IMG/VR virus record: IMGVR_UViG_3300020403_000015 | Span: 1-52,382 of that record | Direction: 5' to 3' (one strand) | Length of the DNA: 52,382 nucleotides | From: a virus | Taxonomy: Duplodnaviria; Caudoviricetes | Shown: piece after piece, positions 12,063-51,294 of the stretch | Numbering within the stretch: position 1 is the first letter of the stretch | How the letters are laid out: every line of letters starts with the position of its first letter | The notes under the pieces: generated by a model | The model's input: only the letters and a program-made list of their open reading frames with translations | What the model was told of the DNA's origin: nothing | Databases searched by the model: none | Made by a program: the position numbers and the translations under genes

Positions 12063-12069
12063 GATTAAT

Positions 12070-15000: not shown

Positions 15001-18000
15001 ATGGCGATGGACCACCTTTTAGGAAGTAAAAAGCACACACGACAACTGGACACTATCCTACGATTGCATGATGCGAATGAAGATGATGGAGAAAGCCGTA
15101 GCGCAGAATTCAATGAAACGGTTGCTCGCTGGAACGAAGCAAAGCAAGACGGTGATAAGGACATGCAATTTAATCTCGCTTTGGACGCTTCTCATATATT
15201 CAGGAAGCTGGGCGATGACGGCATAGAGGTTTATCAGGACCGCAAAAACAACGTAAACGTGGTTTCATTCAAGTTTCCAGAGGACGCTGAGTATGGAACA
15301 CAAGAACATTTCTCTATTGCAATGGTCGGACATAGAGGCGAAGAAGATTTTACCAGCCCCTTTCTGGATGACTATGAATTAACCACATTCAGGTTAGACG
15401 AACAAATACACGACCTCTTTAACAACGAATTAGTTGGCAAAAGAACTGCCACAAGTGACAAGAAAATAACTGTCATAGCCAATTCAAACTCTGATTATGA
15501 CTCCGCGTTTAATAAAGAGTCCGTTTGGAACATAGATTTCTCTGTTGATGGACAGTATACAACTCAAAGGGATACGCCGCCAAAACAAACCATCGAAATA
15601 TTCGGCAAGGTTTTAGCTGGAATAAGAAAGGTTTTGGATGCCATTGATGACAACAACTATGCATTCGGCGGCATTGGATTTACAGCGGCTGGTGGGGTTG
15701 AAGGCTCACCCGCATACAAGAAACAAGCTGTTTATAATAAGATTGCGCGAGACCCTAAAATCCGCGCCATGTTCCCGGAACTTGACGCTGCCCAAAATGT
15801 TGAAAATCTGGGTCAGTTTGAAACGATGGCTGGGTTTATGCCAGCAAAGCCTGATGCTGGTAAAGAGGCATCACTCAGGCTTGACAGGGTTCCAGACCTT
15901 ACTCAGTCTCAGCCGTCCCCTGCTAACAATGACATCGTTAATCAGCTTGTACTAAGCCCACGGGAACGTGCGCTATCTGCTCTCGACATTCTTTACAATC
16001 CAGACTTCAAAGACGAATTACCGCAGAAGGATACCGAAGAAGGTAGAGATGGAAGGAAAAGGGCAAAAGGCAGAAGCATTGCAGAGGTAGGATACGGCCT
16101 TCAGAACAAGGCACTTGCTATCTTGGGTGGGCAAAAGATTACAGAGTCCAATCCTGAGACAGACCAGATGCTTGCAAGGGTGATTGCTTCTGAAGTCATG
16201 GCAGCACTAAAGAATAACCCTGAGGCATCAGCCGCTGACTGGTACACATCTTCCGTTGAACGTGCGATTGATGCTGTAGCACAGCTTTATCCAGAAGTTG
16301 CTACTGACCCTGAACATCGTTCAGCTTTTGCCGCTGCGCTGGCAATCACAAGCCAGAAGATAGTAGTTGACAGAAACTCTCAGCTTGGATTGGCAACCTA
16401 CGAATTCTGGAGAGAGAATGGTCGCTTCCCTCTGTTTGGTGAAGGCGATGCAGCGGGTCCGATGCAAAACAATTTCCGTCTTGCTAACGAGGTTCAGGCT
16501 GCATTTGGGGATGACTTCACAAACTTCCTATCCCGCCAGTATTCTAGAAAAGAACTTGAGCAAGCACTTACTGATGCGGGTATTAAGGTTGGCACAGGGG
16601 GTGTTAACCTTGCTGGCGAGGGTGTAAATGAAATGGTATATGGTTCGTTTATTTTCGGACCAAAAATTGGGCAAGGCTTTTATCAGAACCTGATGGGCAA
16701 CTTTGACCCTGTCACCATTGACCTGTGGTTTATGAGAACATGGGGCCGCATGACAGGTACTCTGGTTGGAAAACCTGAGGCAGCAGCAAAAAACATAGAC
16801 AAGCTCAAGGTGATGATGAGCGAAGAAGGTATTGAGTTTGACAGCAATCTCTTTGGAACTGACGAACAGTACACATTCGACATAGTCACACGCCTAAAAA
16901 GAGACGGCGAAAAACATTACAAGGCTGAGACTGACAGGCTTAAAGAGCAAGGTCTGGAAAAGGAAGACAGAATACCCAAGTCTCCATCTCAGAAAGAGTC
17001 ATCTAATTATATAACCAATATGATGAAAACTATTGAGCAACCCAGAGGCCCGTCTCAGCGGTCTTGGATACGGTCAGTGGTTAAACAGGCTAATGATGTT
17101 TTACGTCAGAATGGAATCAACATAACCAACGCTGACCTTCAGGCTATCATCTGGTATCCTGAAAAGAACTTGTACTCATTGCTTCAGAGCGGAAAACCTA
17201 ACGCTGAAAAATTAAATCAATCATATGACACAACATTTGGAGAACTTATCAATGGCCCAACTGGGATACGCTCCGTGGACCGAGGAAGCGGATTTGACGC
17301 TGTCAGAGAATCTGTCCGAAAAGCAGATAAAAAGCCTAGCAAAAAGTCTAAAGGCAATGTCGGACAGGAAGAGTCAATCCGATTCTCAACAGCAGACTAT
17401 CGAACAACCGATGGAATGAGAAGTGTTCTTGGCGACCCAACCGCCAAGACATTATCTGGTCGAGTCTATAATTTCCTACAAAGGTTTACGACAAAGGAAG
17501 GACGAGCCAACGAAGGACGCAAGTTTATCAATGAATTTGTACACGGCCTCGCCCCACTCGCAAGGCGTGAACTAGCCTTAAGTGAAAAGAGAACTGGAGA
17601 CAGAAGGTATCTGCCGTTTGCACAGTCTGCGTTCAAGGTTACCGAACTAGCCCAGCAAATTCCGGGCCGCATGCAGATGATGTATGAGTTCGGTGCGCCT
17701 AAACTTAACCCTGACGGGTCAATGGGAATAGTTGAAACAACGCAGGGTCTTAAGAAAATCTTTGAACCCATAGGACAGGGTGAAAAGTACGGTCAGTTTC
17801 AGATGTATGTCTACGCCAAGAGAGCGGAGCGACTGAAGCAGGAAGGTCGAGAGAACCTGATGACTGACGCACAGATTGCTGAAGGTCTAGGCTACGGCGC
17901 AGCTAACCCAGAATTTGACCGTGTGTTTCAGGAGTACAGAAAGTTTAACGAAGCACTGATGCAGTTCCTTGTGGACACAGGGTCCATTAATACTGAGACA

Positions 18001-20058
18001 AAGAACAAACTGATAGGCACGGCAGACTACGTTCCTTTTTACCGCATCATCGAAGAAGAGCAATACACAGAGGGGCTGTTCGGTCAGTTGCGTCAGGGCA
18101 ATGACTTTGCACAGAACCAAACTTCTGCATTCGACAACCCTGACAGGTTGGTTAGTAACGTCATTCGCAAACTAAAGGGCGGCGAAGAAAAGATTGGTGA
18201 CCTGTACGAAAATATCTTTGGCAACACACAAGCTATCATATCTGCTGGACTTAGAAACGTAGCCACTAGACGAACCGTTGATGTTGTCGAATCCCTAAAG
18301 AACGAAACAGACTTCTACAAGGGCGTGGACAGTCCAAAGAAAATTAATAAAGACGAAGCAAAGAACAACGACAATCACTTCACCTATCGTGAGAATGGTG
18401 TCACCAAGTTTTACGATGTCGGGGCTGACGGTGAGTTAATCACAGCAATGCGTACCTTCACACCGCCTCAGTTAGCTGGCTTCCTCAAGACGCTTGGTGC
18501 TGTAGGTCGGTTCTTCCGAAACGCAATCACGATAACTCCATCCTTTATGATAGCCAACCTTATCCGTGGTGATATGGCTGGTGTGGTGTCCGTTGACGCA
18601 CCTTTGGTTCCTTTTGTGGACACTATACGCGGTCTGAAAAATGCACTGACAGACTCTGAAACTGTCCAAGAAATGAAAACGATTGGTGGCTTTGGCGGCT
18701 ACACATTTGGTGACAACAACGCCGACTTTGCTAAGAAGATGAAGCGTCATCAACGGCGGCATGACGGTTACGATATCATCGACACACCCCAGCGTATGGG
18801 CGACATGATTGCCACCTTCTTTGAAAAGGTGAACAACGTTGGTGAAGCAACGGAGATGGCTACGAGAGAGGCCATCTTTAGGAAGATGACCGAAGCTGGT
18901 TCAAGTAAGTCAGACGCTGCCTACGAGGCCCTAAACCTCATTAACTACTCAAGGAGAGGCAACCCACAGGGTGCTTTGGCTCAGACATTCTCCATGCTAA
19001 TACCTCTTGTTCCATTCTTGAATGCAAGGGTTCAAGGTTTGTACCGAACTGGCACTGCGTTTAGTACTGAGGCAACTCCAAGGAATACCATAAAGAAAGG
19101 TCTTGGCCTGATGGGGTTATCCCTTGGGCTGTATGCCATCTCAAGCAGTCAAGATGACTGGGACAAAGAGCCACTCCACCGAAAGCTGAATTACTATATC
19201 ATTTACGCTGGTGATAAGAAGTTCCTCATTCCAAAGCCGTTTGAAATAGGCGCGGTCTTCAGCACCATTCCTGAACTGTTCTTTGATTATATAAAGAAAC
19301 GTGATGGTGAAGAGGTTAAGGATGCTGTGCTTCAGATATTCCTGAACAACTTCAGCTTTAACCCCATTCCTCAGGCAGTCAAGCCGTTGGTCGAGGTAGC
19401 ATCGAACTATGATTTCTTTAGAGGTCGGGCGATTGAAAGCCTTGGTGTCAGGGGCTTGCCGACAGAGATGCGTTCCTACTCAACAACAAGCGAGACAGCA
19501 AAACAGATTGGAAGGGTGAGCAGCGCACTGGGTATCTCTCCTATCGAAGCTGAGACTTTAATCAACGGATACGCTGGTAGCCTTGGTTCCTACTTCTTAG
19601 CTGGCGTTGACTCTATCCTTGGCTGGTCAGGGGCTGTTCCACAGAAGCCATCCGGGGTGTTTGGTGACGATATCTCTGGACATGCAGCGGCTGCGCTTGG
19701 TCTGAACCGCTTTGTTAAGGACCGCCCTGCTGACCCCGCATCAAAGTATATGTCTGATTTCTACGAGATGAAGCGTGAAGCTGACGAAGTTGTGCGAGGC
19801 ATCAATCGCTTGAGAGAGGAAGGTGACTACGAAGCTGCGCTTGAGATGAGGAAAGACAACCGCGCACTCATCTCTATCAAGAAGACGCTGAACAAACGTT
19901 ACGTCAAACTCAATCAAATTAACGACCAAATCCAAGGAGTGAAGTCTTCAGGATTAGAGCCTGAAGCAAAACAGAAAAAACTCAACCAACTAATTATTCA
20001 GCGCAACCGTATCGTGTCAGATATGGCGAAGCTGAAGAAGAGAATAAGAGATGTTTAA
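12070..20058 (+). CDS. Giant internal virion / polyvalent protein with C-terminal LPD38-like domain
   Basis: 2662 aa from ATG 12070. HEAFH zincin motif; C-terminal NYSRRG..PFLNARVQG..IPKPFEIG..P.VE...NYDFFRGRAI pattern of LPD38. Confidence 0.7.
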   Translation: MANTVRMPDGKLYDVTGHSQEDIEAARQNLFAQMGYGPQQKEDPGILDAFGRGLSRGIDQTSALVGDALPAIVADSLGYDDYRDEQLKEYTESMERMEKESPSYVPTYKDVDSVGDAALYASETVGMFIPSILTSIAGGGVGGFVGKKVAERFASKMAGDYAKKLATAQTVGRTAGFFTGSGVQTIPEAYTSIAEGTGEPRAGAAFMIGSINAALDSLLPAAIASKLSGRARKDVARSIFARMMKAGGKGAFVEGLTEGTQEANQLAAIDYINNNPDLLRGENLERVLEAGIRGSVGGGAISSVTGMPRGRPTPETDPELVDAAQAYAEGRPAPTEQLTGPDAVQQIGFDPTVQNQETREATVPIVERGERTERTVTDSDGRTQTIVDTPSVGEVGSSARVLTGDQQPFFETLDPETAPTTDARQNAVFVQNASRYAIDNNLDVDEFLGSPEGQTFMDEQAQAADVQDVNLTPTKVGQEERDAVKLNTPQLLEWGEQNKANDPQIANIMGSGVNNNVKAQALRQYLTRKNVTPATAEQASQTGDPILRPRPKTAEEGTVESTDEAFQPRMSRRKDTEQGAQLREEVGPVVNSALLEALRLRGGEASVRMNESGEIDEAATTKANTKYEGAVRYLNMRLNNLSKQGAQGKRVADSIRTQVMDNQSMGAKEIVGAFLAGDAVVDVLGGEGISGGVGLMFHKTLKGNGKHSLEGLKEYVNNGNQAVINLAFYEDDPRRVAQTASHEAFHILQDFYSEYSPSDSKLLESVYKMKDGKVNFKALPGTIKRLWKEYDPQLHRMALDGTLPEAMSSPAEFQAKTFELYKKAQQAGESNPLTGSYGRFFDFVGRFLPRLRNYMRGFGYQTAEDVFTRAASGKTAQQIKGKKVSSRDTQSGTEQSIAVDREPTPRDVYSQLEKLANKEGSEQSLRMAAEKHRDAMQVTTNEPSQIRVEGFVADTNPVITKNTVFDFETQDRKGRAVMAMDHLLGSKKHTRQLDTILRLHDANEDDGESRSAEFNETVARWNEAKQDGDKDMQFNLALDASHIFRKLGDDGIEVYQDRKNNVNVVSFKFPEDAEYGTQEHFSIAMVGHRGEEDFTSPFLDDYELTTFRLDEQIHDLFNNELVGKRTATSDKKITVIANSNSDYDSAFNKESVWNIDFSVDGQYTTQRDTPPKQTIEIFGKVLAGIRKVLDAIDDNNYAFGGIGFTAAGGVEGSPAYKKQAVYNKIARDPKIRAMFPELDAAQNVENLGQFETMAGFMPAKPDAGKEASLRLDRVPDLTQSQPSPANNDIVNQLVLSPRERALSALDILYNPDFKDELPQKDTEEGRDGRKRAKGRSIAEVGYGLQNKALAILGGQKITESNPETDQMLARVIASEVMAALKNNPEASAADWYTSSVERAIDAVAQLYPEVATDPEHRSAFAAALAITSQKIVVDRNSQLGLATYEFWRENGRFPLFGEGDAAGPMQNNFRLANEVQAAFGDDFTNFLSRQYSRKELEQALTDAGIKVGTGGVNLAGEGVNEMVYGSFIFGPKIGQGFYQNLMGNFDPVTIDLWFMRTWGRMTGTLVGKPEAAAKNIDKLKVMMSEEGIEFDSNLFGTDEQYTFDIVTRLKRDGEKHYKAETDRLKEQGLEKEDRIPKSPSQKESSNYITNMMKTIEQPRGPSQRSWIRSVVKQANDVLRQNGINITNADLQAIIWYPEKNLYSLLQSGKPNAEKLNQSYDTTFGELINGPTGIRSVDRGSGFDAVRESVRKADKKPSKKSKGNVGQEESIRFSTADYRTTDGMRSVLGDPTAKTLSGRVYNFLQRFTTKEGRANEGRKFINEFVHGLAPLARRELALSEKRTGDRRYLPFAQSAFKVTELAQQIPGRMQMMYEFGAPKLNPDGSMGIVETTQGLKKIFEPIGQGEKYGQFQMYVYAKRAERLKQEGRENLMTDAQIAEGLGYGAANPEFDRVFQEYRKFNEALMQFLVDTGSINTETKNKLIGTADYVPFYRIIEEEQYTEGLFGQLRQGNDFAQNQTSAFDNPDRLVSNVIRKLKGGEEKIGDLYENIFGNTQAIISAGLRNVATRRTVDVVESLKNETDFYKGVDSPKKINKDEAKNNDNHFTYRENGVTKFYDVGADGELITAMRTFTPPQLAGFLKTLGAVGRFFRNAITITPSFMIANLIRGDMAGVVSVDAPLVPFVDTIRGLKNALTDSETVQEMKTIGGFGGYTFGDNNADFAKKMKRHQRRHDGYDIIDTPQRMGDMIATFFEKVNNVGEATEMATREAIFRKMTEAGSSKSDAAYEALNLINYSRRGNPQGALAQTFSMLIPLVPFLNARVQGLYRTGTAFSTEATPRNTIKKGLGLMGLSLGLYAISSSQDDWDKEPLHRKLNYYIIYAGDKKFLIPKPFEIGAVFSTIPELFFDYIKKRDGEEVKDAVLQIFLNNFSFNPIPQAVKPLVEVASNYDFFRGRAIESLGVRGLPTEMRSYSTTSETAKQIGRVSSALGISPIEAETLINGYAGSLGSYFLAGVDSILGWSGAVPQKPSGVFGDDISGHAAAALGLNRFVKDRPADPASKYMSDFYEMKREADEVVRGINRLREEGDYEAALEMRKDNRALISIKKTLNKRYVKLNQINDQIQGVKSSGLEPEAKQKKLNQLIIQRNRIVSDMAKLKKRIRDV

Positions 20059-22369: not shown

Positions 22370-22535
22370 TGGTGCAAGTCTGGTGCAACGCCTTGTAAGT
22401 TATTGTAATCATTTAAAAAATATGGCAGTCTCTCCGCCAGCATTTTTGAATGAATTCAAATGGTTACAAGTAAATTGCACCAGAGTTTGTGTCACAGTGT
22501 GTCACAGTGTGTCAAGCTGTTTCAGCTTTGCACCA
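22370..22535. other. Putative attP site (core GTCTCTCCGCCA, 22428-22439)
   Basis: Directly downstream of the integrase. Core resembles a tRNA-Ser 3' end; TGGTGCAA x2 and TTGCACCA x2 arm-like repeats; 10-bp tandem repeats at 22488-22514; IHF-like sites. Confidence 0.7.
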
Positions 22536-23577
22536 CAGAAAATTTAGGCACTTCGATAAGAGAAGAGCCAACCTCAGAACTCTTCTCCATGAACTTAGGG
22601 TCGAATTTTGCATAGTGTTTTTGTGTTATCTCTATGCTTGTGTGGGCTAGATACTTACTCACCTCGTAAATTTCCACACCGTTCTTCACCATGTGAACAG
22701 CACAGGTGTGGCGCATTATGTGAGGTGTGACATCGGCTGATAGCCCAGCCCTCTCAGCCGCTTTCATAAAGTCGGGATAGATTGAGATAAGCGGCTTACC
22801 ATTTTTCTCCACAAGATAACCAGACTTTGACCTGTTAATTGCATCAGCAAGATGCGGCCTAAGTTTTGCTGGCATCCGTATAACTGGGCGTGGCTTCTGG
22901 CGGCCTTTAATTGTTGGGTCACGGAAGTCTATGATATTATCGTCCATCCTTGTACGGTCTTTGTGCAGCCCTAGAATGGCTCCAGACCGCGCTGCCGTTG
23001 ACAGGGCTATGTTGAGCCACAAACTTAAGTGATAGCTGTCAGAGGACTCCAGAAGCGCAGCAATCTCCTCACGCGACAAGTATCTATCTCTCACGCCAGA
23101 GTTAACGTTCTCAAATTGAACAGGGTTCCAGTCAATCAACTCGACCTTGCGACAAAACATTAACGCAGCATGCAGTACGTTTAATTCGCGTGAAGCTGTT
23201 GAGCCTTTTACCTTACGATTTCGTATGTACTCCACCGACTTACGATTTGTAATCGTTGAGATTTCCAAATCACCCATGTATGTAAGAAGTTGCTTTACGA
23301 TAGAATTATGCCTTGCAAGATTTCTCCCCCAAGTTCCCCTCGCAATTAATTCATTCGTATATTCATTCAACACTTGACTTATCTTGGTATAAGGCCCTGT
23401 TTCTTCTGAGTTTAATCCTTTCAGGAAGTTATCATAGAATAGCCTAGCTTCTGTTTCATCTTTAGTCCCTGTTGAAATGCTTTGATATTTTGTTTTCCAC
23501 TGCCCTTCCCTAAAGATTCGTTCAGGCCAGAAGATTTCAAAGTTTCTCTGTCCCTTCCTTCGCAATATATATTCCAT
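22522..23577 (-). CDS. int: Tyrosine recombinase/integrase
   Basis: TAARSGAI (R), K, HIMRH (HxxR), LAH and YA catalytic residues. Confidence 0.92.
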   Translation of the reverse strand: MEYILRRKGQRNFEIFWPERIFREGQWKTKYQSISTGTKDETEARLFYDNFLKGLNSEETGPYTKISQVLNEYTNELIARGTWGRNLARHNSIVKQLLTYMGDLEISTITNRKSVEYIRNRKVKGSTASRELNVLHAALMFCRKVELIDWNPVQFENVNSGVRDRYLSREEIAALLESSDSYHLSLWLNIALSTAARSGAILGLHKDRTRMDDNIIDFRDPTIKGRQKPRPVIRMPAKLRPHLADAINRSKSGYLVEKNGKPLISIYPDFMKAAERAGLSADVTPHIMRHTCAVHMVKNGVEIYEVSKYLAHTSIEITQKHYAKFDPKFMEKSSEVGSSLIEVPKFSVVQS

Positions 23578-34802: not shown

Positions 34803-35078
34803 TCAATGCACTTGTTCACGTTTCCTTGCGCGGTACTTTTGTTTGTAAATCCTGTCGTACTCACGATACCTGACACGATTTTGTAGCCGCCACCTTCGCA
34901 CGGCAGGACGGGACTTGAGATATTTTCGGTGTTGGTTTCGGTACTCTCCAAAGAGGATGAGTAGTTTAACTGTGTCCGATAATAACTCTGCATTCATGTT
35001 ATCCTTTATTAAATCCCAACTAAATTTACCGTGCTTAAGTTTCCAAGCAGCCCTTGCTTTGAGATATTTTTTCTTCAT
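34803..35078 (-). CDS. Basic hypothetical protein
   Basis: K/R-rich, 91 aa; ATGA overlap with Sir2. Confidence 0.55.
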   Translation of the reverse strand: MKKKYLKARAAWKLKHGKFSWDLIKDNMNAELLSDTVKLLILFGEYRNQHRKYLKSRPAVRRWRLQNRVRYREYDRIYKQKYRARKREQVH

Positions 35079-35734
35079 GCCCGTTGCCTCTTCTTGTAGA
35101 GTTCATCAAAGCGTTTGTGTAAGATTGGAAGACCAACAGTCGCTGGCATATTCAAGACCTCATCAAACGCTGGATGACCTGTTGGTTCAGGGTTTAGCTC
35201 TATGCAATGAGTGCCTTTATGCCTCGCCTTAAAGACCATCGAACTATCACCACTGATTGACAGTGAAGAGCCAACAACAATTAAGACATCAGCCTCATCC
35301 AGAAGTTTGTCAGTCTGCTCTTCATGCATCTTCTCTTCTCCAAACAGCACGACATCAGGGATAACAACACCTTCTCGAATGCTACGGGTACGGCTCATGC
35401 AGCCGTGAATTTTGAAAAGGTTTTTAGAGCCAGCCTTTTCATGTAGGTCATCAACGTTGGTTGTGATTAAACCAAAGCCACCCTTACGCTTCGCGACACA
35501 ACGTTCAAACTTACGAATAAGTTTGTGTGCTATAGTCGGTTGGAAGTTTGCTGCTTTATATTCAGCAGTCACCTTGTCCCAAAAGTCGGTGAACTGCTTT
35601 TGGTCTATCAACCAGCCGCCAGTCTGAGCAACGATGGCTGGATTGTGTTCGGCCCATAGAGCCTTGCTTGCACGAAATGTGGGGATGCCACTCTCTGCGC
35701 TGATACCCGCGCCAGTATAGAAAACAATATTCAT
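35075..35734 (-). CDS. Sir2/CobB-family NAD-dependent deacylase lacking the Zn module
   Basis: TGAGISAESGIPTFR, TTNVDDLHEKAG, IHG, PDVVLFGE, VGSS, LNP. Confidence 0.9.
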   Translation of the reverse strand: MNIVFYTGAGISAESGIPTFRASKALWAEHNPAIVAQTGGWLIDQKQFTDFWDKVTAEYKAANFQPTIAHKLIRKFERCVAKRKGGFGLITTNVDDLHEKAGSKNLFKIHGCMSRTRSIREGVVIPDVVLFGEEKMHEEQTDKLLDEADVLIVVGSSLSISGDSSMVFKARHKGTHCIELNPEPTGHPAFDEVLNMPATVGLPILHKRFDELYKKRQRA

Positions 35735-41679: not shown

Positions 41680-42545
41680 TTTCAGTTCCAATGCGGTGAG
41701 GTGTTCACCGTGTCAGGGCTTGGCAAGGGAGATAACCAAGCCCTCACAAGGTGACAGGACCGAAGCCCTGCCGCCTGAAACTGTGTTTTCATCATTGACC
41801 GCCCTGCATTCCTGCACTGGCATGTCATGTTGGCTAGTCAATGGCTGATGTTTACGGCAACCCGTGTCACTTTTTCCACGGGTGCGGCAAACTTGATGCA
41901 ATGTGGCGGTCAGCACCGCCAGCCGCCGAAGCGACAACCTGTCATGGTCAGTGGCAAGGGGTCCGAAGACAATTTTAATTCCAACCGTGCAACCTCTTAT
42001 TACACGGTCAACGTTGCAGCCCTGCTTTGGGGGTCTCGACTGCATAACATCCTATCTGCGGGGTGTGGTGGCCCTGCCCAGTCTGGGGGTCTCAATCAGT
42101 ATTGGAAAGCGTCCTTTGTGGGGAATGGTTACCCTGCCAAGTTGGGGGTCTGTGAAGGGTTGCTGTTAGGACGGTTTGTTGAATTCCTACACCTAACAGC
42201 AGCCGGACAATTGACCAGTTCCAACGGGTCTAACGAACACCTGATGATGCACCAGTTCCAGTGGGTCTAATGTGCAGCAGCGCGATTGACCAATTCCAAG
42301 GGGTCTAGCGCAACGTTGCTTGCGTTTAGCGTTTGTAGTCTTATGAACGATGGGAAAAAGCGAACCGAAGCCAGCGTCCTGCCGCCTATGCGGAGTATCG
42401 GGGGGCGGGAATTGAACTGCCAGTGCAGCCATTAGGCCAGCCCTTGTCCGACTGCCAACATTGCAGCGGGGCGTGGGGTCACCGTGTGAGCGGTGTCGGT
42501 ATGAACTTTGTCAAACAGCGCGGCCCAAAAATGCTAGGGGGCCAA
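41680..42545 (-). ncRNA. Candidate large structured RNA / leader of the early operon
   Basis: No credible CDS; GC-richer than flanks; many hairpins; four C(UUCG)G loops on the minus strand; six repeated AGACCC modules. Confidence 0.55.
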
Positions 42546-45450: not shown

Positions 45451-45669
45451 ATGGATTTAAAAACTTACATTTTAGTCATCACCATGTGGGGACACAATGG
45501 AGACGAATGGGAATATATCGGAAACCAATCGCGTCTCTTGCAACACATGACTGAGGACCAATGTGTTTTTCTTGCAGATATGTGGGACGAGAGTTACGAG
45601 AACAAATACTATAAATTAAAGTATCACTGTTTCCCCTCTGATTGCGCGGGAAAAGAGAGTTGTGACTGA
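45451..45669 (+). CDS. Hypothetical protein
   Basis: GGAG RBS; hydrophobic N-terminus. Confidence 0.55.
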   Translation: MDLKTYILVITMWGHNGDEWEYIGNQSRLLQHMTEDQCVFLADMWDESYENKYYKLKYHCFPSDCAGKESCD

Positions 45670-47176
45670 AACGTCTGCACAAGAACTACTCAAAAATATT
45701 GATAAACTTCCACCTCATCACTACGAAGCTGTAACCAAAGCCCTAGCTAAATGGCATGAAGCCAAGCAGATAGACAAGGCAAAGGACAGTTTTTTAGATT
45801 TTGTTAAGGTGGTATGGCCTTCCTTTATTGAGGGGCCGCACCACCGTATTATGGCAGAAAAGTTTGAGAGGGTAGCCAACGGCGAGTTGAAGCGGGTCAT
45901 CATCAACATAGCTCCTCGCCACGGTAAGTCTGAGCTTACCTCATGGCTCCTTCCCGCTTGGATGCTCGGTAAAGACCCTAGCAAGAAGATAATTGCGGCG
46001 ACACACACCGCAGATTTCTCTGTTCGGTTTGGTCGAAAGGTTCGTAACCTTATTGACGCTGAGTCATTCAAGTCGGTTTTTTCCAACGTCACGCTTCGTG
46101 CTGACTCTAAGGCGGCTGGTCGTTGGGATGTATCAGGCGGGGGTGAATACTTCGCTGTTGGTGTCGGCGGTGCGATGACTGGTCGTGGTGCTGACTTGTT
46201 AATAATAGATGACCCGCACTCAGAGACAGCGGGTATCAATCCGTCTCTGGATTATTTTGACAGTGTCTATGAATGGTATGCCTCTGGTCCAAGACAGCGT
46301 CTGCAACCGGGCGGTGCTATTATAATCGTGATGACACGGTGGCATGAACTGGACCTGACGGGTCACATCCTTCAGTCATCAGAGGAACGCAAAGGCTCCG
46401 ACCAGTGGGAAGTAATCCAACTCCCTGCCCTCTACGAAGACGGTGAACCTTTATGGCCTGACTTCTGGAGTAAGGCCGAACTTGATGCTCTGAAAGCTGA
46501 ACTGCCCATATCAAAGTGGTCAGCCCAGTACCAGCAGCAGCCCACCTCAGAAGAAGGTGCGCTGATAAAGCGTGAATATTGGAGAGAATGGCGAGGCTCT
46601 TCGCCGCCAAACTGCTCGTATATAATCCAGTCTGTTGATACGGCGCACACCAAAAATGCCCGTTCAGATTACTCAGCCATCACCACATGGGGAGTTTTTG
46701 ACCACACAAACGAGGATGGGCAGACAGTCCCGAACATAATCCTTCTGGATGCGATTAACGAAAAACTGGAATTTCCTGAACTTAAGAATAGGGCTTTAGA
46801 ACAATATTATGCTTACGAACCTGATGGATACCTTATCGAAGCTAAAGCGGCGGGTTTGCCTCTCATACAAGAACTACGAGCATCAGGTATACCTGTCACT
46901 GATTACACTCCGAGTCGCGGTCAAGATAAACTATCGCGGGTTAATTCAATCACTGACATCTTTGCGAACAAGATTGTTTGGTATCCAGCCACTCGCTGGG
47001 CTGAAGAAGTGGTTGAGCAATGTGCGGCGTTCCCTAACGGAGCGCATGACGACCTTGTGGACTGCACGACCTTGGCGCTGATGCGCTTCAGACAAGGTGG
47101 CTTCCTTACTTTGGGAAGCGACTACGAAGATTTGGAAGACGAATGGAAGTCACCTCGAAGAGAACCTTACTACTAG
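45662..47176 (+). CDS. terL: Terminase large subunit
   Basis: APRHGKS Walker A, TGRGADLLIIDDP, MTRWH.D, QYQQ.P, DTA, IE.KA.G, FPNG.HDDLVD. Confidence 0.95.
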   Translation: MTETSAQELLKNIDKLPPHHYEAVTKALAKWHEAKQIDKAKDSFLDFVKVVWPSFIEGPHHRIMAEKFERVANGELKRVIINIAPRHGKSELTSWLLPAWMLGKDPSKKIIAATHTADFSVRFGRKVRNLIDAESFKSVFSNVTLRADSKAAGRWDVSGGGEYFAVGVGGAMTGRGADLLIIDDPHSETAGINPSLDYFDSVYEWYASGPRQRLQPGGAIIIVMTRWHELDLTGHILQSSEERKGSDQWEVIQLPALYEDGEPLWPDFWSKAELDALKAELPISKWSAQYQQQPTSEEGALIKREYWREWRGSSPPNCSYIIQSVDTAHTKNARSDYSAITTWGVFDHTNEDGQTVPNIILLDAINEKLEFPELKNRALEQYYAYEPDGYLIEAKAAGLPLIQELRASGIPVTDYTPSRGQDKLSRVNSITDIFANKIVWYPATRWAEEVVEQCAAFPNGAHDDLVDCTTLALMRFRQGGFLTLGSDYEDLEDEWKSPRREPYY

Positions 47177-47185
47177 GGAGATTAG

Positions 47186-48256
47186 ATGCCGCCAAGAAAT
47201 CACAAGAAGTGGCTTGAGAAGCCGAAGGTAGATTTTGTTAGTTCCCTCATCTACTCAGACCACGGACTGTATGAACAAGAACTTGAAAACATATTTTCAA
47301 AGGTATGGATTCCTATCTGTCACGAAAGTGAACTTCCTAACACAGGATGCTTCAGGACAAGCAGTATAGCTAACCAGAATGTAATAGCTGTTCACAGGCA
47401 AAGCGGTATTGAGGTTTACAAAAACGAGGGAATAAGAGCGGTCTCAGGCCAGTTCGACCCAACAGGTCACGGCTACTGGGACAAGCTGCACAGTGAAGTC
47501 AAGTATGGTGGGATGGTGTGGACAACTCTTGACCCAGACCCCCGTCAGAGCCTTGATGAATGGATAGGTGGTGCGTTTGACTGCATCCTGTCAGCTATAG
47601 ATACGGAACCATTAGAGGTATTTCACTACCATAAGGCCATAATAGACACGAATTACAAGCTGTGGCACGACACAAACAGCGAATTTTACCACGATTTCAT
47701 GCATTATTTTAACCGCGTATCGGGCTTTAACGATGAATATTTTGCTAGAAAAAATATACCATTCGATAATGGTCACGTTAACGTCAGCAGTTTCACGGTT
47801 AACTACGAAGAATACGATGGCTTTGAGGATAGAGGAGAGCTTAGTTTCCCTACTCTCCCACCCAATCAATGGTACATGGTGGATTTATTTCCCGGATTTA
47901 ATTTTAATCTTCGCGGCAGTGCTTATCGAAGCGACAGCGTTACACCTCTTGGGCCTGATAAGGTTATGATTGAGTTCAGGGGGTATGGATTAAAAAGCGA
48001 TACACCTGAAGAACGCCAAACAAGAATAAAACATCACAACTCTATCTGGGGTCCATTCGGAAGAAACCTTCACGAAGACCTGATTGGTGTTGCTGGTCAA
48101 GGCACAACCATGAGACAGGGAACAGAGCCGCGCAATATTCTGCATGGCAGACATGAGAACTCAACTATCCACGATGAAGTTGGAATGCGTCACTACTACC
48201 AAGAGTGGAGCAAGTGGATGGGTGTATCAGCAAGCAACCCTTTAACTAAGGACTAG
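47186..48256 (+). CDS. msmA: Methanesulfonate monooxygenase alpha-subunit-like Rieske oxygenase lacking Rieske ligands
   Basis: IFSKVW...CHESELP, PLEVFHYHKA...TNYKLWHDTNSEFYHD.MHYFNR, IWGPFGRNLHEDL.GV.GQG and TIHDE.GMRHYY.EWS match MsmA as I recall it. No CxH/CxxH motifs. Confidence 0.8.
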   Translation: MPPRNHKKWLEKPKVDFVSSLIYSDHGLYEQELENIFSKVWIPICHESELPNTGCFRTSSIANQNVIAVHRQSGIEVYKNEGIRAVSGQFDPTGHGYWDKLHSEVKYGGMVWTTLDPDPRQSLDEWIGGAFDCILSAIDTEPLEVFHYHKAIIDTNYKLWHDTNSEFYHDFMHYFNRVSGFNDEYFARKNIPFDNGHVNVSSFTVNYEEYDGFEDRGELSFPTLPPNQWYMVDLFPGFNFNLRGSAYRSDSVTPLGPDKVMIEFRGYGLKSDTPEERQTRIKHHNSIWGPFGRNLHEDLIGVAGQGTTMRQGTEPRNILHGRHENSTIHDEVGMRHYYQEWSKWMGVSASNPLTKD

Positions 48257-48258
48257 TT

Positions 48259-50616
48259 ATGGAAGAAGAACTAACAGAAGCCGTCCAGTCCACCGATGAC
48301 ATGACCATAGGGATTCTTAATCCTGATGCTGTAGCTATTGAAGATGGCGAAGGCGGCGTTGTTATTGACTTCACCCCACCAGAAGAGATGGAAGAAGAGC
48401 CAATTCCTTTTGACGCAAACCTTGCCGAACACATGGATGAAGGTGACCTTGGCTCTTTGGCTGGGGATTTGATTGCTGCTTACGATGACGACAGAGCATC
48501 TCGCGGAGAATGGGAAGACGCTTACACTGCTGGCTTGGACTTGCTTGGTGTAAAGGTTGAGGAGAGAACCACACCATTTGAAGGTGCTACAGGTGTCACC
48601 CATCCAATTCTTAGCGAAGCAGTAATAAGGTTTGTTTCACAGGCCATGATGGAAATATTTCCAAACAATGGCCCGGTCAGAACAACCGTTATCGGCAATA
48701 AGACAGATGAGCGTCAGGAACAGGCCCGAAGAGTTCAGGATTATATGAACTATCTTCTGACCGAAGAGATGGAAGAGTACCGTCCCTCAACTGAACAGTT
48801 ACTATTTAAAACTGCACTTGCTGGCTCTGGCTTCAGGAAAGTGTACTACGACCCTCACCACAATCGACCAGAGAGTATATTTGTTCCTGCTGAAGACTTT
48901 GTCGTCAGCTATGATACTACAGATATCAAATCATCCCCACGTTACACACACGTTATGCGGAAGTCTGATAACTTTGTTAGACGGCTCCAGTTGAATGGGT
49001 TCTACCGTGATACTGACTTAGGAGATATATCTGATGAAGCCGACAGCGTTAAAACCAAATATGATGAACTCACAGGTGTCACGGAAGTCTCAGAGTCAGA
49101 CATCCGAACACTCCTTGAAGTCTTCGTTGAACTCGACTTGCCCGGATTTGAAGACGAAAGAGACGGAGAGCCGACAGGACTCCAACTCCCCTACGTTGTC
49201 ACCATTGACCAATCCAGCGGAACTGTCTTATCAATTCGCCGTAATTATGAAGAGGATGATGCACTAGCTGAACCCCTTCAGCACTTTGTCCACTACAAGT
49301 TTCAGCCCGGTCTGGGGTTCTACGGCTTTGGTCTTATCCATCTTATTGGAAGTATAGCAAAGTCATCGACCAGCATTCTTCGACAACTGATTGACGCTGG
49401 CACACTAGCGAACCTTCCCGCTGGTTTTAAAGCCAGAGGCTTACGAATTAAGGGAGATGACAAGCCGATTGAACCCGGAGAGTTTAGAGATATAGACCTT
49501 CCTGGGGGTGCAATCCGCGATAACATCTTACCCTTACCATTCAAGGAGCCTTCTCCCACGCTCTCTCAGTTGATGGGAGTTCTGGTCGAGGAAGGTAGAA
49601 GGATTGCTTCGATAGCAGACTTACAGATTGGTGAGGGTAATCAAGAAGCACCAGTCGGCACAACAATAGCTTTAATAGAACGGTCAATGAAAGTTATGAG
49701 CGCGGTGCATGCGAGGCTTCACAACAGCCTACGCCGTGAGTTCAAGCTACTGGCTAATATAATAAAGGATACACTACCAGCGTATCCATATGATGTTGGG
49801 GCAGATTCGTTAATTGCGAGGTCAGACTTTGACGACCGAGTTGATATCATACCTGTTTCTGACCCCAACGCCACATCGTTTGCCCAGCGGATTATGCAGC
49901 AGCAAGCCGCGTTGCAAACAGCACAGGCTGCGCCCCAACTATACGATTTGAGAAAACTCCATAGGTCTTTTCTCAACACTGTTGGCGTGGACGGTGTGGA
50001 CGAAATTGTTCCTGACCCAACGAACATATCTCCTTATGACCCCGTCTCTGAGAATGCTCGTATAATGTCAGGTGCGCCAGTCAAGGTCTTTGCATATCAG
50101 GACCATGACAGCCATATATCTGCCCACATGTCCTTGATGCAAGACCCAAGCCTCAAACAAAACCCGATGGGACAGATGATTGCTCAAGCAATATCCGCTC
50201 ATATATCGGAACATATGGCGCATAAGTACCGCAACGAAGCTGAACAACTTATGGGTACTCAGCTTCCACCTCTGTCAACCGAGAATGATAAGGGGCTTTC
50301 AGAAGAAGAAGAAAGTCAATTGTCAGCAGTGGCAGCGCAAGCAGCCGCTCAGATTACTGGAAAGGCCCAGCAGCAAGCTGTGCTTGAACAGCAGATGGCA
50401 GCAGCGCAAGACCCAGTGGTTCAACAGCAGCAAGCTGAGATACAGGTTAAGCAAGCAAAGGTACAGCAAGAGGCTCAAGAGGCGCAGCTTGATGCAAATG
50501 TTGAAATGCAAAAAGCTACCATGCGTCAACAGCTTGAGAGAGAACGACTAAAACAACAGCGTGAAATAGCCGAAATGAAAGTTGCCGCTGACCTAGCTAA
50601 GTCTAACCGCAATTAA
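48259..50616 (+). CDS. Portal protein
   Basis: PFDANLAE, D..SR.EWE, PFEGA.GV.HP.L.EA..RF, G..F.KVY.D, GFYGFG.IH, RQL.DAGTL.NLP.GFK, APVGTT.A; Q-rich barrel tail. Confidence 0.88.
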   Translation: MEEELTEAVQSTDDMTIGILNPDAVAIEDGEGGVVIDFTPPEEMEEEPIPFDANLAEHMDEGDLGSLAGDLIAAYDDDRASRGEWEDAYTAGLDLLGVKVEERTTPFEGATGVTHPILSEAVIRFVSQAMMEIFPNNGPVRTTVIGNKTDERQEQARRVQDYMNYLLTEEMEEYRPSTEQLLFKTALAGSGFRKVYYDPHHNRPESIFVPAEDFVVSYDTTDIKSSPRYTHVMRKSDNFVRRLQLNGFYRDTDLGDISDEADSVKTKYDELTGVTEVSESDIRTLLEVFVELDLPGFEDERDGEPTGLQLPYVVTIDQSSGTVLSIRRNYEEDDALAEPLQHFVHYKFQPGLGFYGFGLIHLIGSIAKSSTSILRQLIDAGTLANLPAGFKARGLRIKGDDKPIEPGEFRDIDLPGGAIRDNILPLPFKEPSPTLSQLMGVLVEEGRRIASIADLQIGEGNQEAPVGTTIALIERSMKVMSAVHARLHNSLRREFKLLANIIKDTLPAYPYDVGADSLIARSDFDDRVDIIPVSDPNATSFAQRIMQQQAALQTAQAAPQLYDLRKLHRSFLNTVGVDGVDEIVPDPTNISPYDPVSENARIMSGAPVKVFAYQDHDSHISAHMSLMQDPSLKQNPMGQMIAQAISAHISEHMAHKYRNEAEQLMGTQLPPLSTENDKGLSEEEESQLSAVAAQAAAQITGKAQQQAVLEQQMAAAQDPVVQQQQAEIQVKQAKVQQEAQEAQLDANVEMQKATMRQQLERERLKQQREIAEMKVAADLAKSNRN

Positions 50617-50668
50617 ATTAGGCACTGACCAGTAAACACATGTTATATTTACACTAGGAGTTTTTCCC

Positions 50669-50872
50669 TTGAGCGAACATAGCGTTCATGCTTTTACGAA
50701 AGTACATCGTGAAACAATAAGAACTTACATGAATGAATTAACTGATAACCTAGCGCTTGGGTCTGCAAAGACCTTTGAGGATTATCAGCGAACTGTCGGT
50801 CAGATTGAAGGTCTGGCGATAGCAGAGCGAGAGCTTTTAAATCTACTATCGAAGTCCTCTGATGAGGACTAA
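50669..50872 (+). CDS. Small conserved head-module protein
   Basis: G....EDYQ..VG.I.GL motif; AGGAG RBS with TTG start. Confidence 0.65.
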   Translation: MSEHSVHAFTKVHRETIRTYMNELTDNLALGSAKTFEDYQRTVGQIEGLAIAERELLNLLSKSSDED

Positions 50873-50916: not shown

Positions 50917-51294
50917 ATGTCGTCCGTATACAGTACGGGCGCGGTTGTCGTGCCTGACAACCCGCCAAAACCTATGGGATATCACGTTCTTATTGTGATG
51001 CCCAAGGTAGAAGAAAAAACGATAGGTGGTGTAATACTACCGTCAGAAGTCAAAAGTCGTGAAGACGTTGCTTCGATTGTTGGAAAAGTTATATCCGTTG
51101 GTGCGACTGCGTACCCCGAAACGGATTCTAGGTTCGCCGCTGGTCCTTGGTGTCAAGAGGGCGACTGGGTGATGGTGAGTAAATACTCAGGTCACCGCTT
51201 CGACTATGATGGCATTGAGATGCGTCTTATGAATGATGACGCGATTCTAGCTGTTGTAGATGACCCAACTAAAGTGTCGAGGGCAACAGCATGA
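50917..51294 (+). CDS. groES: Co-chaperonin GroES-like protein
   Basis: P.G..VLI.....EEKT.GG.ILP, G.V.SVG, GD.V..SKYSG, L.NDD.ILAVV. Confidence 0.88.
   Translation: MSSVYSTGAVVVPDNPPKPMGYHVLIVMPKVEEKTIGGVILPSEVKSREDVASIVGKVISVGATAYPETDSRFAAGPWCQEGDWVMVSKYSGHRFDYDGIEMRLMNDDAILAVVDDPTKVSRATA

Follow-up and report, generated by a model that had tools for sequence, protein, structure and literature searches.

A phage MsmA-like oxygenase subunit without its Rieske cluster, and a candidate electron partner in SAR116 genomes

How might an oxygenase alpha subunit work once the cluster that should feed it electrons has been deleted? This question is raised by a gene in a 52,382-nucleotide genome sequence of a marine Caudoviricetes phage (IMG/VR record IMGVR_UViG_3300020403_000015), which we refer to as the window. 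In Rieske oxygenases, the iron of each subunit receives its electrons from the cluster of the adjacent subunit. The product of the gene, P0001, resembles MsmA, the alpha subunit of methanesulfonate monooxygenase, and has no Rieske cluster. Viral msmA figures among published auxiliary metabolic genes as widespread and marine-only, and in the literature searched we found no explanation for the working of a subunit without an electron-input cluster. A first, sequence-only reading of the window had proposed that the protein co-assembles with host MsmA, as an extra catalytic subunit or as a dominant-negative modulator, or has been repurposed.

The gene is intact and tightly packed among its neighbours (Table 1). 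It begins 9 nt 3' of TerL, its ribosome-binding site overlaps the TerL stop codon, and the portal gene begins 2 nt past its own stop codon. The 356-residue reading frame, its ATG start and its GGGAG motif were confirmed as first described, the frame being uninterrupted. The placement between terminase and portal was likewise borne out by the PHROG assignments of both flanks, with both junctions recovered in independent assemblies. Contigs from 4/4 runs (four studies) cover the stretch; those of runs X3, X9 and X12 bridge the TerL/msmA and msmA/portal junctions, and those of X3, X7 and X9 cross the deletion site gap-free. An assembly artefact, which the sequence-only reading had named as a possible source of the deletion, is ruled out by these contigs. 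That reading had also noted the lack of msmB, msmC and msmD genes. Indeed, homologues of MsmB, MsmC and the reductase were found neither in the window nor in any of 80 viral loci. No tRNA or tmRNA was found in the window, and neither the surroundings of the integrase nor the matching stretch of host DNA contained an Rfam family. Between positions 42500 and 51000, promoter-like sites (11 vs 9.9 +/- 3.3 by chance) and terminator-like sites (12 vs 8.1 +/- 2.6 by chance) occurred at chance level.

Table 1. Features of the oxygenase locus (positions in the window)
Feature	Position	Strand	Basis and remarks
TerL (terminase large subunit)	45662..47176	+	Upstream flank; phrog_38, E 4.3e-106; Pfam Terminase_6N, Terminase_6C
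GGGAG Shine-Dalgarno-like motif	47176..47180	+	Read from sequence; 5 nt before ATG
Rieske-less MsmA-like oxygenase alpha subunit (P0001)	47186..48256	+	356 aa, ATG start
Rieske-fold remnant, residues 1-82, preceding the cluster-binding loops	47186..47431	+	Match to solved oxygenases; model
Residues 83-106, short segment without Cys-His ligand pairs	47432..47503	+	Alignments A1 and A4; motif scan
PF00848 catalytic domain, residues 143-346	47612..48223	+	Pfam
E166-F-Y-H169-D-F-M-H173, bridging carboxylate and two His iron ligands	47681..47704	+	Alignment to terephthalate dioxygenase; A2
H296-E297-D298, with D298 the putative carboxylate iron ligand	48071..48079	+	Alignment to terephthalate dioxygenase; A2
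Portal protein	48259..50616	+	Downstream flank; phrog_1216, E 1.7e-31

The protein was described at the outset as keeping its iron ligands while a short linker replaces the Rieske segment, and Pfam, alignments A1 and A4 and motif counts all agree with that description. P0001 matches PF00848 alone (E 4.4e-7, 30.5 bits, cut-off 24.9), with no match to the Rieske domain PF00355, and by Pfam is not a two-domain Rieske oxygenase alpha subunit; the true MsmA of Filomicrobium insigne matches both domains. A 70-residue section of true MsmA that includes CPH-X26-CMFH corresponds to 24 residues of P0001 (A1, A4), and about 46 residues including CXH-X26-CXXH, with all four cluster ligands, are absent. 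The sequence preceding the lost loops still resembles a Rieske fold. Residues 1-82 are 45% identical to true MsmA (37/82), query positions 22-82 match chain positions 20-80 at the Rieske-domain start of solved oxygenases, and the model places beta strands in residues 1-82 with pLDDT 89-96. The monomer model has a pTM of 0.83, and a fold search with P0001 returned the alpha subunits of TPADO and NagGH (E about 4e-20, TM about 0.7). P0001 was assigned to no PHROGs family, and its NCBIfam matches were partial and far below the cut-offs (44 bits vs 750).

At the iron site, E166, H169, H173 and D298 align to D207, H210, H215 and D356, the iron-site residues of terephthalate dioxygenase. None of the 50 rows of alignment A2 departs from the iron ligands or from the bridging E166. 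We then counted motifs in the fetched homologues (161 loci minus L033, whose start is mis-set, and L121, which has an in-frame stop after 61 codons). The pattern C.H-X15-30-C..H is present in 0/102 short forms, while EFYHDFMH and HED are retained in every one of the 102; all three motifs occur in 57/57 long forms.

The assignment to MsmA held up, as the best Rieske-bearing relatives of P0001 are genuine MsmA proteins of msmABCD operons. Overall identity to 58 long-form (Rieske-bearing) loci is 56-61%, and residues 101-356 are 73% identical to the F. insigne protein (188/256). In the tree, short forms constitute a separate clade (stem 0.48, SH-aLRT 100), and P0001 falls inside this Rieske-less clade of phages and SAR116 (HMO-2011 gp61 type, about 350-365 aa). 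With the tree rooted on the long forms, cellular short forms nest within viral ones, and the label 'host-derived' is therefore without support. The AU test leaves a single viral clade tenable (p 0.238); thus, the tree sets no direction of transfer between cells and phages. The dN/dS comparison suggested at the outset indicated strong purifying selection among viral copies (0.070; 624/3160 pairs usable), away from the value near 1 expected of decay, which is ruled out. For residues 101-356 the ratio is 0.037.

The closest published phage counterpart is HMO-2011 gp61 (YP_008320323, annotated 'methanesulfonate monooxygenase'), which is 77% identical over 100% of the query. The two proteins are alike in length class, missing Rieske motif, retained iron motif and membership of the short-form clade. 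The abstract of the primary HMO-2011 description, by Kang et al. in PNAS in 2013, reportedly speaks of an 'atypical methanesulfonate monooxygenase'. The phage backbones differ: tblastn with the window TerL found nothing in the HMO-2011 locus, and the gp61 gene lies upstream of lysozyme and TerL genes, whereas the P0001 gene lies between TerL and portal. TerL comparisons rule out that the window belongs to the HMO-2011-type phage group. The missing Rieske motif of gp61 was published in 2013-2015. The earlier remark that short phage msmA-like sequences had been noticed was thus correct, and as a type of gene the phage Rieske-less msmA was already known. The words methanesulfonate, monooxygenase and dioxygenase have 0 occurrences in the HMO-2011-type phage paper PMC9038755, and nothing found in the literature from 2016 onward joins phage msmA, Rieske and methanesulfonate.

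Rieske loss is not peculiar to the phage copy: SAR116 chromosomes carry this short form too, within their msm clusters. These chromosomal proteins (e.g. L014:8001-9095, P0124) are 74-77% identical to P0001, whose deletion and iron site they share, and the SAR116 short form is likely the cellular orthologue of the phage gene. While the phage copy stands alone, the SAR116 short form is encoded with an ABC importer, an MsmE-like binding protein, MsmB, MsmC, TauE sulfite exporters, SoeABC-like sulfite dehydrogenase proteins, THF C1 enzymes and a second MsmA paralogue. This paralogue has the opposite defect, with its Rieske motif intact, its iron site destroyed and a ferredoxin reductase fused to it.

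The two paralogues are reciprocally degenerate, and they co-occur in SAR116 genomes. In 10/10 fusions, CPH-X26-CMFH is kept while EFYHDFMH and the GRNLHED segment are gone; in three further fusions (G032, G033 and G035) only the first His remains, with neither the second His nor the D298 segment. The HED (D298) segment is deleted in 13/13 host Rieske-bearing paralogues examined. The Rieske domain of the fusion is nearly letter-for-letter conserved in 10/10 copies while the catalytic half decays, which indicates that the cluster still serves something. MsmA-like genes were found in 16/96 genomes of one (SAR116) family. Both halves are present in 14 of these 16; one genome has the short form only and another a fusion piece only, both in incomplete assemblies. 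The fusion lies 2-7 kb upstream of the short form in 13/22 short-form genome loci, and in L005 and L008 the two share a contig at a distance of about 11 kb. Canonical MsmA was found neither in 5/5 SAR116 genomes searched nor among the 16 msm-positive genomes.

To relate the phage protein to this paralogue, we modelled the two as a complex, which scored 0.83 (runs 0.82, 0.83 and 0.83; best control 0.00), a score that may derive from likeness to solved Rieske oxygenase trimers and that denotes compatibility rather than binding. Contacts agree between runs in at least 55%, with a partner pLDDT of at least 84, and the same mark is reached by 116/157 solved complexes and 2/215 mismatched pairs. In the model, the host cluster-binding loops (89-97 and 121-124) contact phage residues 162, 168-169 (H169), 171-172 and 300-330. 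Predicted interface residues are more often invariant (22/37) than residues elsewhere (107/319). A three-fold ring cannot accommodate two alternating subunit types, so that at most one productive interface per trimer would be anticipated. Of the co-assembly proposed in the sequence-only reading, a complex with a Rieske-bearing host subunit is favoured; the pairing with normal host MsmA is not, since none was found in those genomes. The partner is more likely a dedicated paralogue that has kept its cluster, lost its iron site and been fused to a reductase. The SAR116 Rieske-bearing sister thereby suggests an electron source for the phage enzyme.

Hints to the host of the present phage are weak. 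The GC content of the window (46.1%) compared with that of SAR116 loci (42-47%), together with a 101-nt match to one SAR116-family genome (G046), faintly points to a SAR116-family host. No shared prophage genes were found around the match in G046. At only 53% identity, the nearest relatives of the window TerL are those of pelagiphages HTVC027P and HTVC023P, and no similar TerL was found in the 96 SAR116-family genomes, an empty result that is uninformative on the host.

Our preferred reading is that the phage gene probably encodes the purely catalytic half of a methanesulfonate monooxygenase divided between two paralogues. An ancestral MsmA alpha subunit would have been duplicated in SAR116, and the copies would have degenerated in opposite ways. 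One copy would have kept CXH-X26-CXXH, lost its iron site and gained a fused NAD(P)H-ferredoxin reductase; the second copy became the short form and would have lost its cluster loops with the MsmA active site essentially unchanged. Because electrons cross between subunits, such a split pair can still function as a heteromer, presumably with MsmB and the Rieske ferredoxin MsmC. In the present phage, the short form is probably transcribed with the packaging genes. Its product would dock on the host Rieske-bearing paralogue and so sustain or increase the splitting of methanesulfonate into sulfite and a C1 unit during infection. The comparisons themselves establish the anatomy, the opposed defects of the paralogues, their co-occurrence in hosts and the purifying selection; that a heteromer forms, how electrons reach the iron, which substrate is used and what the phage gains are what we infer from them. 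Neither SAR116 growth on methanesulfonate nor enzyme activity towards it was found in the literature searched. The late expression anticipated from the gene's placement fits its tight packing between TerL and portal in the present phage, and is not general, since HMO-2011 and further phages have the gene in different modules. More tentatively, SAR116 and its phages may possess a Rieske oxygenase whose cofactor sites are split over two paralogues, with catalysis only across the heteromer. The phages might then resupply the damage-prone iron half, keeping sulfite (energy) and C1 units for nucleotides available late in infection, like cyanophage psbA. Such a reciprocally split Rieske oxygenase was not found described in the literature searched.

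We also considered that the short form could be an autonomous oxygenase that needs no Rieske-bearing alpha-like partner, forming homotrimers with or without MsmB. The electron donor would be MsmC occupying the vacated site, peroxide or a four-electron substrate. The retention of MsmC in 14 SAR116 loci is compatible with such an enzyme, as are a monomer model that folds, the non-adjacent fusion of L005 and L008, the single genome with the short form alone and the spread of the gene by phages without any partner. We nevertheless regard autonomy as unlikely, given the conserved Rieske domain of the otherwise decaying fusion, the co-occurrence of the halves in nearly all msm-positive genomes and the invariance of the bridging E166 and the neighbour-facing surface.

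A change of substrate seems less probable still. The protein may have been repurposed to another small substrate or reaction, its methanesulfonate label being inherited from annotation. The methanesulfonate activity of the short clade is a prediction from sequence, all proven methanesulfonate growers have the long-spacer Rieske motif (Henriques and De Marco), and the N-terminal 100 residues evolve faster (dN/dS 0.21). Repurposing is opposed by the identity of the catalytic domain to MsmA of bona fide msmABCD operons. It is further opposed by the neighbours of the cellular copies, since their sulfite and C1 genes handle the fates expected of methanesulfonate products.

The dominant-negative role raised in the sequence-only reading would make the phage protein a decoy that displaces the host catalytic subunit and stops or redirects methanesulfonate oxidation. 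The modelled protein would dock where the host short form does, and it has no electron-input site of its own. A decoy needs the interface only, yet the iron ligands are invariant in 80/80 full-length viral copies (the window included; L121, with its early stop, left out). The catalytic domain is under the strong constraint given above, and phage copies are orthologous to the host's working half rather than altered versions of it. We therefore find this role a poor fit and very improbable. Lastly, unrelated inserts occupy the TerL/portal junction in related phages, and msmA occurs there in only 2/42 related loci, but a functionless passenger (moron) at a recombination hot spot is hardly credible for a gene encoded by more than 600 viral stretches among the matches listed, on at least four unrelated phage backbones and under strongly purifying selection (window vs L083, dN 0.002, dS 0.053).

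How does the preferred, two-paralogue reading compare with known enzymes? Canonical MsmA of msmABCD (Methylosulfonomonas methylovora M2; compared here through F. insigne L036:8001-9272, P0123) has the iron ligands and bridging carboxylate in common with P0001. Canonical MsmA carries CXH-X26-CXXH on the same chain and is served by a separate FNR-type reductase, MsmD, whereas P0001 is without cluster ligands. Of the hallmarks of MSAMO, P0001 thus has the iron site and the MsmA kinship, and not the long-spacer Rieske motif or the company of msmB/C/D. A published precedent is the NdmCDE N7-demethylase of Pseudomonas putida CBB5, in which the catalytic subunit NdmC is devoid of a Rieske cluster and the reductase NdmD carries it instead. 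SAR116 clusters show this same split between a cluster-less catalytic subunit and a reductase bearing the Rieske cluster; for the phage, the parallel would depend on its host and on the modelled association. Unlike NdmD, the SAR116 Rieske chain includes a whole dead alpha-subunit body and a glutathione-reductase-type reductase. Unlike NdmC, the short form keeps a Rieske-fold remnant. No GST-like NdmE was seen in the SAR116 clusters.

SAR116 genomes thus add to the phage gene a chromosomal short form, a fusion sister with the reversed defect and the co-occurrence of the two, of which phages carry the catalytic half only. If the pairing is true, NdmCDE would be joined by a second, independent example of a Rieske oxygenase whose cluster has moved to the reductase chain, here via the reciprocal decay of duplicates. 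In that case, surveys whose primers or motifs depend on the long Rieske spacer would overlook the principal catalytic gene of SAR116, an abundant clade, and of its phages.

Both the intact 356-codon reading frame and the GGGAG ribosome-binding site proposed for the oxygenase gene were confirmed by reading the ORF and its upstream sequence (see the table). A Pfam search of the product, P0001, returned PF00848, the catalytic domain of ring-hydroxylating alpha subunits, as its only domain (residues 143-346, E 4.4e-7; 30.5 bits, cut-off 24.9) and detected no Rieske domain. No PHROGs family was found for P0001, and its NCBIfam matches were partial and far under the cut-offs. The match to solved structures came in two pieces, with residues 22-82 and 107-346 corresponding to terephthalate dioxygenase 20-80 and 149-408, respectively; in this structure-sequence alignment the [2Fe-2S]-binding portion of terephthalate dioxygenase is without a counterpart in P0001. 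Residues E166, H169, H173 and D298 of P0001 align to D207, H210, H215 and D356 of the same enzyme, which there supply the bridging carboxylate and the three ligands of the iron.

Alignment with the MsmA of Filomicrobium insigne gave 45% identity over residues 1-82 of P0001 (37/82) and 73% over residues 101-356 (188/256), and between these blocks 24 residues lacking ligand pairs stand for a 70-residue MsmA stretch that holds CPH-X26-CMFH. We refer to homologues with the cluster loops deleted and the iron site kept as short forms, and to true MsmA, which keeps both, as long forms. Among all fetched homologues the motif C.H-X15-30-C..H was found in none of 102 short forms, all 102 of which keep EFYHDFMH and HED, while all three motifs occur in each of 57 long forms; this count omits two of the 161 loci, L033 (start mis-set) and L121 (early stop). 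Retention of the iron motifs and loss of CxH...CxxH in P0001, as read from the sequence, are thus borne out by alignments and motif counts alike. In L121, one of 80 viral oxygenase copies, an in-frame stop follows 61 codons (744-929), which may point to a broken allele or to an error in sequencing.

The sequence-only reading had left room for an assembly artefact or a decaying gene. Four sequencing runs, each from a different study, supplied contigs that were placed on window 45600-50700, and all four runs cover this interval. In runs X3, X9 and X12 the TerL/oxygenase junction and the oxygenase/portal junction are each crossed by contigs, and contigs of X3, X7 and X9 span the deletion site with base differences and no gap, which rules out an assembly artefact. 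In all four assemblies the contigs covering the window phage break near 47,820-47,850, and summed contig depth rises there (window 47652-47993; to 36 in X3 and 103 in X7). This region is the most conserved part of the oxygenase gene, and break and depth rise probably reflect a conserved stretch common to many phage and cellular variants. Decay is ruled out by the Nei-Gojobori dN/dS among the 80 viral copies, which over all columns has a median of 0.070, far from 1, in the 624 of 3160 pairs that were usable, most being saturated at synonymous sites. The viral ratio was 0.21 for residues 1-100 and 0.037 for residues 101-356, the median for 15 cellular copies was 0.028 (8/105 pairs usable), and the window differs from its near-twin L083 by a dN of 0.002 and a dS of 0.053. 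Purifying selection on viral msmA was previously reported in a preprint from which the word Rieske is absent.

A scan with one genome per prokaryote species yielded 198 relatives, of which 80 were kept. Long forms made up 58 of these (match ~1200 nt, 56-61% identical to P0001), from Hyphomicrobiaceae, Filomicrobium, Methyloligellaceae and similar groups, and the other 22 were short forms (~1050 nt, 71-78%). The F. insigne locus is a textbook msmABCD operon: besides an alpha subunit with Rieske and catalytic domains it encodes the beta subunit, the Rieske ferredoxin and an FNR-type reductase, together with a sulfite exporter, and next to it lies a divergently transcribed ABC importer. Among 50,697 records, Puniceispirillum phage HMO-2011 was the only cultured phage with the gene; its gp61, annotated as methanesulfonate monooxygenase, is 77% identical to P0001 over the full length. 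Henriques and De Marco (2015) report that many MsmA-annotated GOS and virome proteins, that of HMO-2011 included, are without the four Cys/His ligands, that the HMO-2011 host has two MsmA-annotated proteins with the motif on one only, and that all proven methanesulfonate growers have the long-spacer motif. The earlier remark on phage-borne and short msmA-like sequences was therefore correct, and both this type of gene and its lack of the cluster are already in the literature. The speculation that methanesulfonate oxidation is started by the phage protein recurs in a review.

The window, 52,382 nt from IMG/VR, is linear and estimated to be 83% complete. The relatives closest to its TerL, only 53-58% identical, are those of Pelagibacter phages HTVC027P and HTVC023P and of two uncultured phages. 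The window TerL has no match in the HMO-2011 locus; it therefore belongs to another phage backbone, and the window copy is a known gene type on a new backbone and at a new site. The long virion-protein ORF at 12019-20058 comes after a DNA-ejection-protein gene and an endolysin-domain protein, and the matches of its C-terminal 750 residues are to PHROG families whose function is unknown.

Features of the window phage and gene order of the chromosomal msm-like cluster in L014 (SAR116)
Feature	Position	Strand	Remarks
Virion protein, 2679 residues	12019..20058		single ORF; N-terminus matches virion structural protein
Integrase	22522..23577	-	
Sir2-like gene	35075-35734		phrog_2162; early region
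TerS	42719		
MazG	45073		
TerL	45662..47176	+	phrog_38, E 4e-106
GGGAG	47176-47180	+	5 nt 5' of P0001 ATG; overlaps TerL stop codon
Oxygenase P0001, 356 residues	47186..48256	+	uninterrupted ORF, ATG start
Portal	48259..50616	+	phrog_1216, E 2e-31; starts 2 nt after oxygenase stop
GroES-like gene	50917-51294		phrog_3188; between portal and scaffold-like gene
Repressor-like protein, exonuclease, SSB			encoded in window
Ribonucleotide reductase, DnaD-like loader, primase-helicase			encoded in window
Tail-fibre genes			encoded in window
L014, 1: ABC permease, NMT1-type binding protein		opposite	
L014, 2: P0122, 815 residues			
L014, 3-4: MsmB-like beta subunit, then Rieske ferredoxin			
L014, 5: conserved 274-residue protein	L014:6921-7745		no Pfam match
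L014, 6: short form P0124			
L014, 7 on: LysR, TauE, PanB-like transferase, formate-THF ligase, two FolD, second TauE			

Fifty viral loci with a related TerL were collected, 42 of which show both TerL and portal. With gaps estimated from alignment ends, the two genes lie within ~35 nt of each other in 22 loci, 39-479 nt apart in 13 and 878-1094 nt apart in 7. Only two of the 42 have the oxygenase at this junction: L176, which is the same phage as the window, and L178, whose TerL is 88% identical to that of the window and whose oxygenase only 76%. Unrelated junction ORFs occur at L202:6013-6825 (270 aa) and L217:3966-4865 (299 aa), neither with a Pfam match, and an 86-aa DUF6321 protein is encoded at L200:4157-4417. 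Because of these varied gaps and unrelated inserts, the junction looks like an insertion hot spot for morons, in agreement with the description of the oxygenase as inserted between terminase and portal. Spacings of 9 and 2 nt around the gene leave no room for separate signals, and pattern scans for promoters and terminators around it gave chance-level results only. From this tight packing, co-transcription with the late genes is a fair inference for the window phage; the late expression suggested earlier should not be assumed for phages with the gene elsewhere.

In SAR116 cells the short form has a putative partner. P0124, the short form on the 606-kb SAR116 contig L014, is encoded in an msm-like cluster together with P0122, a fusion of an MsmA paralogue to a ferredoxin reductase (Rieske domain at 49-137; Pyr_redox_2 and Reductase_C at 406-803). 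The first 400 residues of P0122 align with MsmA, and its cluster-binding stretch is near-identical to that of true MsmA, while the protein is scrambled at EFYHDFMH and the GRNLHEDLIGV segment is deleted. All 10 complete fusions share these three features; those of genomes G032, G033 and G035 are less decayed, still without the second His and the D298 segment. G032 carries a SoeABC-like molybdoenzyme set between ferredoxin and short form. At G002:C5:71188-73571 (L166, L169) the Rieske-bearing paralogue and the reductase are adjacent ORFs of 341 and 491 aa, an arrangement that is either unfused or due to a frameshift.

The fusion or its end lies 2-7 kb upstream in 13 of the 22 short-form genome loci, and ~11 kb off on the same contig in L005 and L008, in one of which it is split into two ORFs. 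Four others (L003, L018, L020, L024) are phage contigs binned into MAGs, carrying TerL and an SU10-type portal, or UvsX/DnaB/ThyX, or ribonucleotide reductase and a tail-fibre domain. The remaining three (L009, L013, L021) are short contigs, two of which have other genes of the SAR116 cluster: L009 carries MsmB, MsmC and the 274-residue protein, L013 the last only. When five SAR116 genomes were searched in full, each yielded no MsmA relatives other than the short form and the fusion. Across 96 SAR116-family genomes, 16 had MsmA relatives (E <= 1e-40): 14 with both halves, one with the short form only and one with a fusion piece only, the latter two being incomplete assemblies. Neither the window nor the 80 viral loci contain MsmB, MsmC, the 274-residue protein or the fusion; the phages carry the short form only. 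The gene for the ~274-residue protein, which has no Pfam match, immediately precedes that of the short MsmA in 15 SAR116 loci and comes right after msmD in 26 of 58 canonical msm loci. The protein, with a further copy at L173:11555-12385, may be an unrecognised methanesulfonate monooxygenase accessory.

A search of the 96 SAR116-family genomes detected no window-like TerL, and no tRNA was found in the window. GC content is 46.1% in the window and 42-47% in SAR116 loci. Beside the integrase stop (22522), window 22442-22542 is 82% identical over 101 nt to G046:C12:38285-38385 (E 1e-21), within a ~1.7-kb ORF-poor region (L226, L229) of a SAR116-family genome that has the short form. The match carries GTGTCACAGTGTGTCA-type repeats, and no shared genes, tRNA or Rfam family were found around it. 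The stretch may be an att site or a common regulatory element, and is a weak hint at the host. Trees calculated with the Rieske columns removed place all short forms in one clade (SH-aLRT 100, stem 0.48), within which the 17 cellular short forms form one clade (95) nested among viral copies; the fusion halves group apart in a long-branched clade of their own. Although the cellular copies are nested, an AU test did not reject a single viral clade (p 0.238), so the trees set no direction of transfer between cell and phage.

Rieske oxygenases transfer electrons between subunits: an electron leaves the cluster of one alpha subunit and reaches the iron in the adjacent one by way of a bridging carboxylate. 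Opposite defects in two paralogues can therefore be made good at the interface between them. Consistent with such complementation, none of the 50 rows of alignment A2, which has both long and short forms, departs from the bridging E166 or the iron ligands, and the fusion combines a near-unchanged Rieske half with a decayed catalytic half. We modelled P0122 residues 1-400 with P0001, using alignments A3 and A2. The predicted complex scored 0.83 (runs 0.82, 0.83 and 0.83), compared to 0.00 for the best of three controls; at least 55% of contacts agree between runs, and partner pLDDT is at least 84. Of 157 solved complexes 116 attain this mark, as do 2 of 215 mismatched pairs. In the model, P0122 89-97 and 121-124, loops holding C91, H93, C120 and H123, contact P0001 162, 168-169, 171-172 and 300-330, including iron ligand H169. 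Solved structures include Rieske oxygenase trimers in good number, so the score may reflect likeness to these rather than binding. Across 50 sequences, 22 of 37 predicted interface residues are invariant versus 107 of 319 elsewhere, a modest enrichment that is partly an active-site effect. The monomer model of P0001 (pLDDT 78.7, pTM 0.83, metal-site loops of low confidence) matches the alpha subunits of terephthalate dioxygenase and salicylate 5-hydroxylase (E ~4e-20, TM ~0.7).

The published precedent for a catalytic subunit without a cluster, with the cluster on the reductase, is NdmCDE of Pseudomonas putida CBB5, in which NdmC lacks the cluster and the reductase NdmD has an extra Rieske cluster. 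Alternatively, the ferredoxin MsmC might reduce the short form directly. In the case of pairing with the fusion, two types of subunit cannot alternate around a ring of three, so that at most one productive interface would form per trimer. The literature searched contained neither this phage/host split nor a demonstration of methanesulfonate oxidation by SAR116; high msm transcript levels in coastal water are known from a cited report. On balance, we somewhat favor a methanesulfonate monooxygenase divided between two paralogues, in which the phage would supply the iron-site half and the reductase fusion of the host would serve as the cluster-bearing half.
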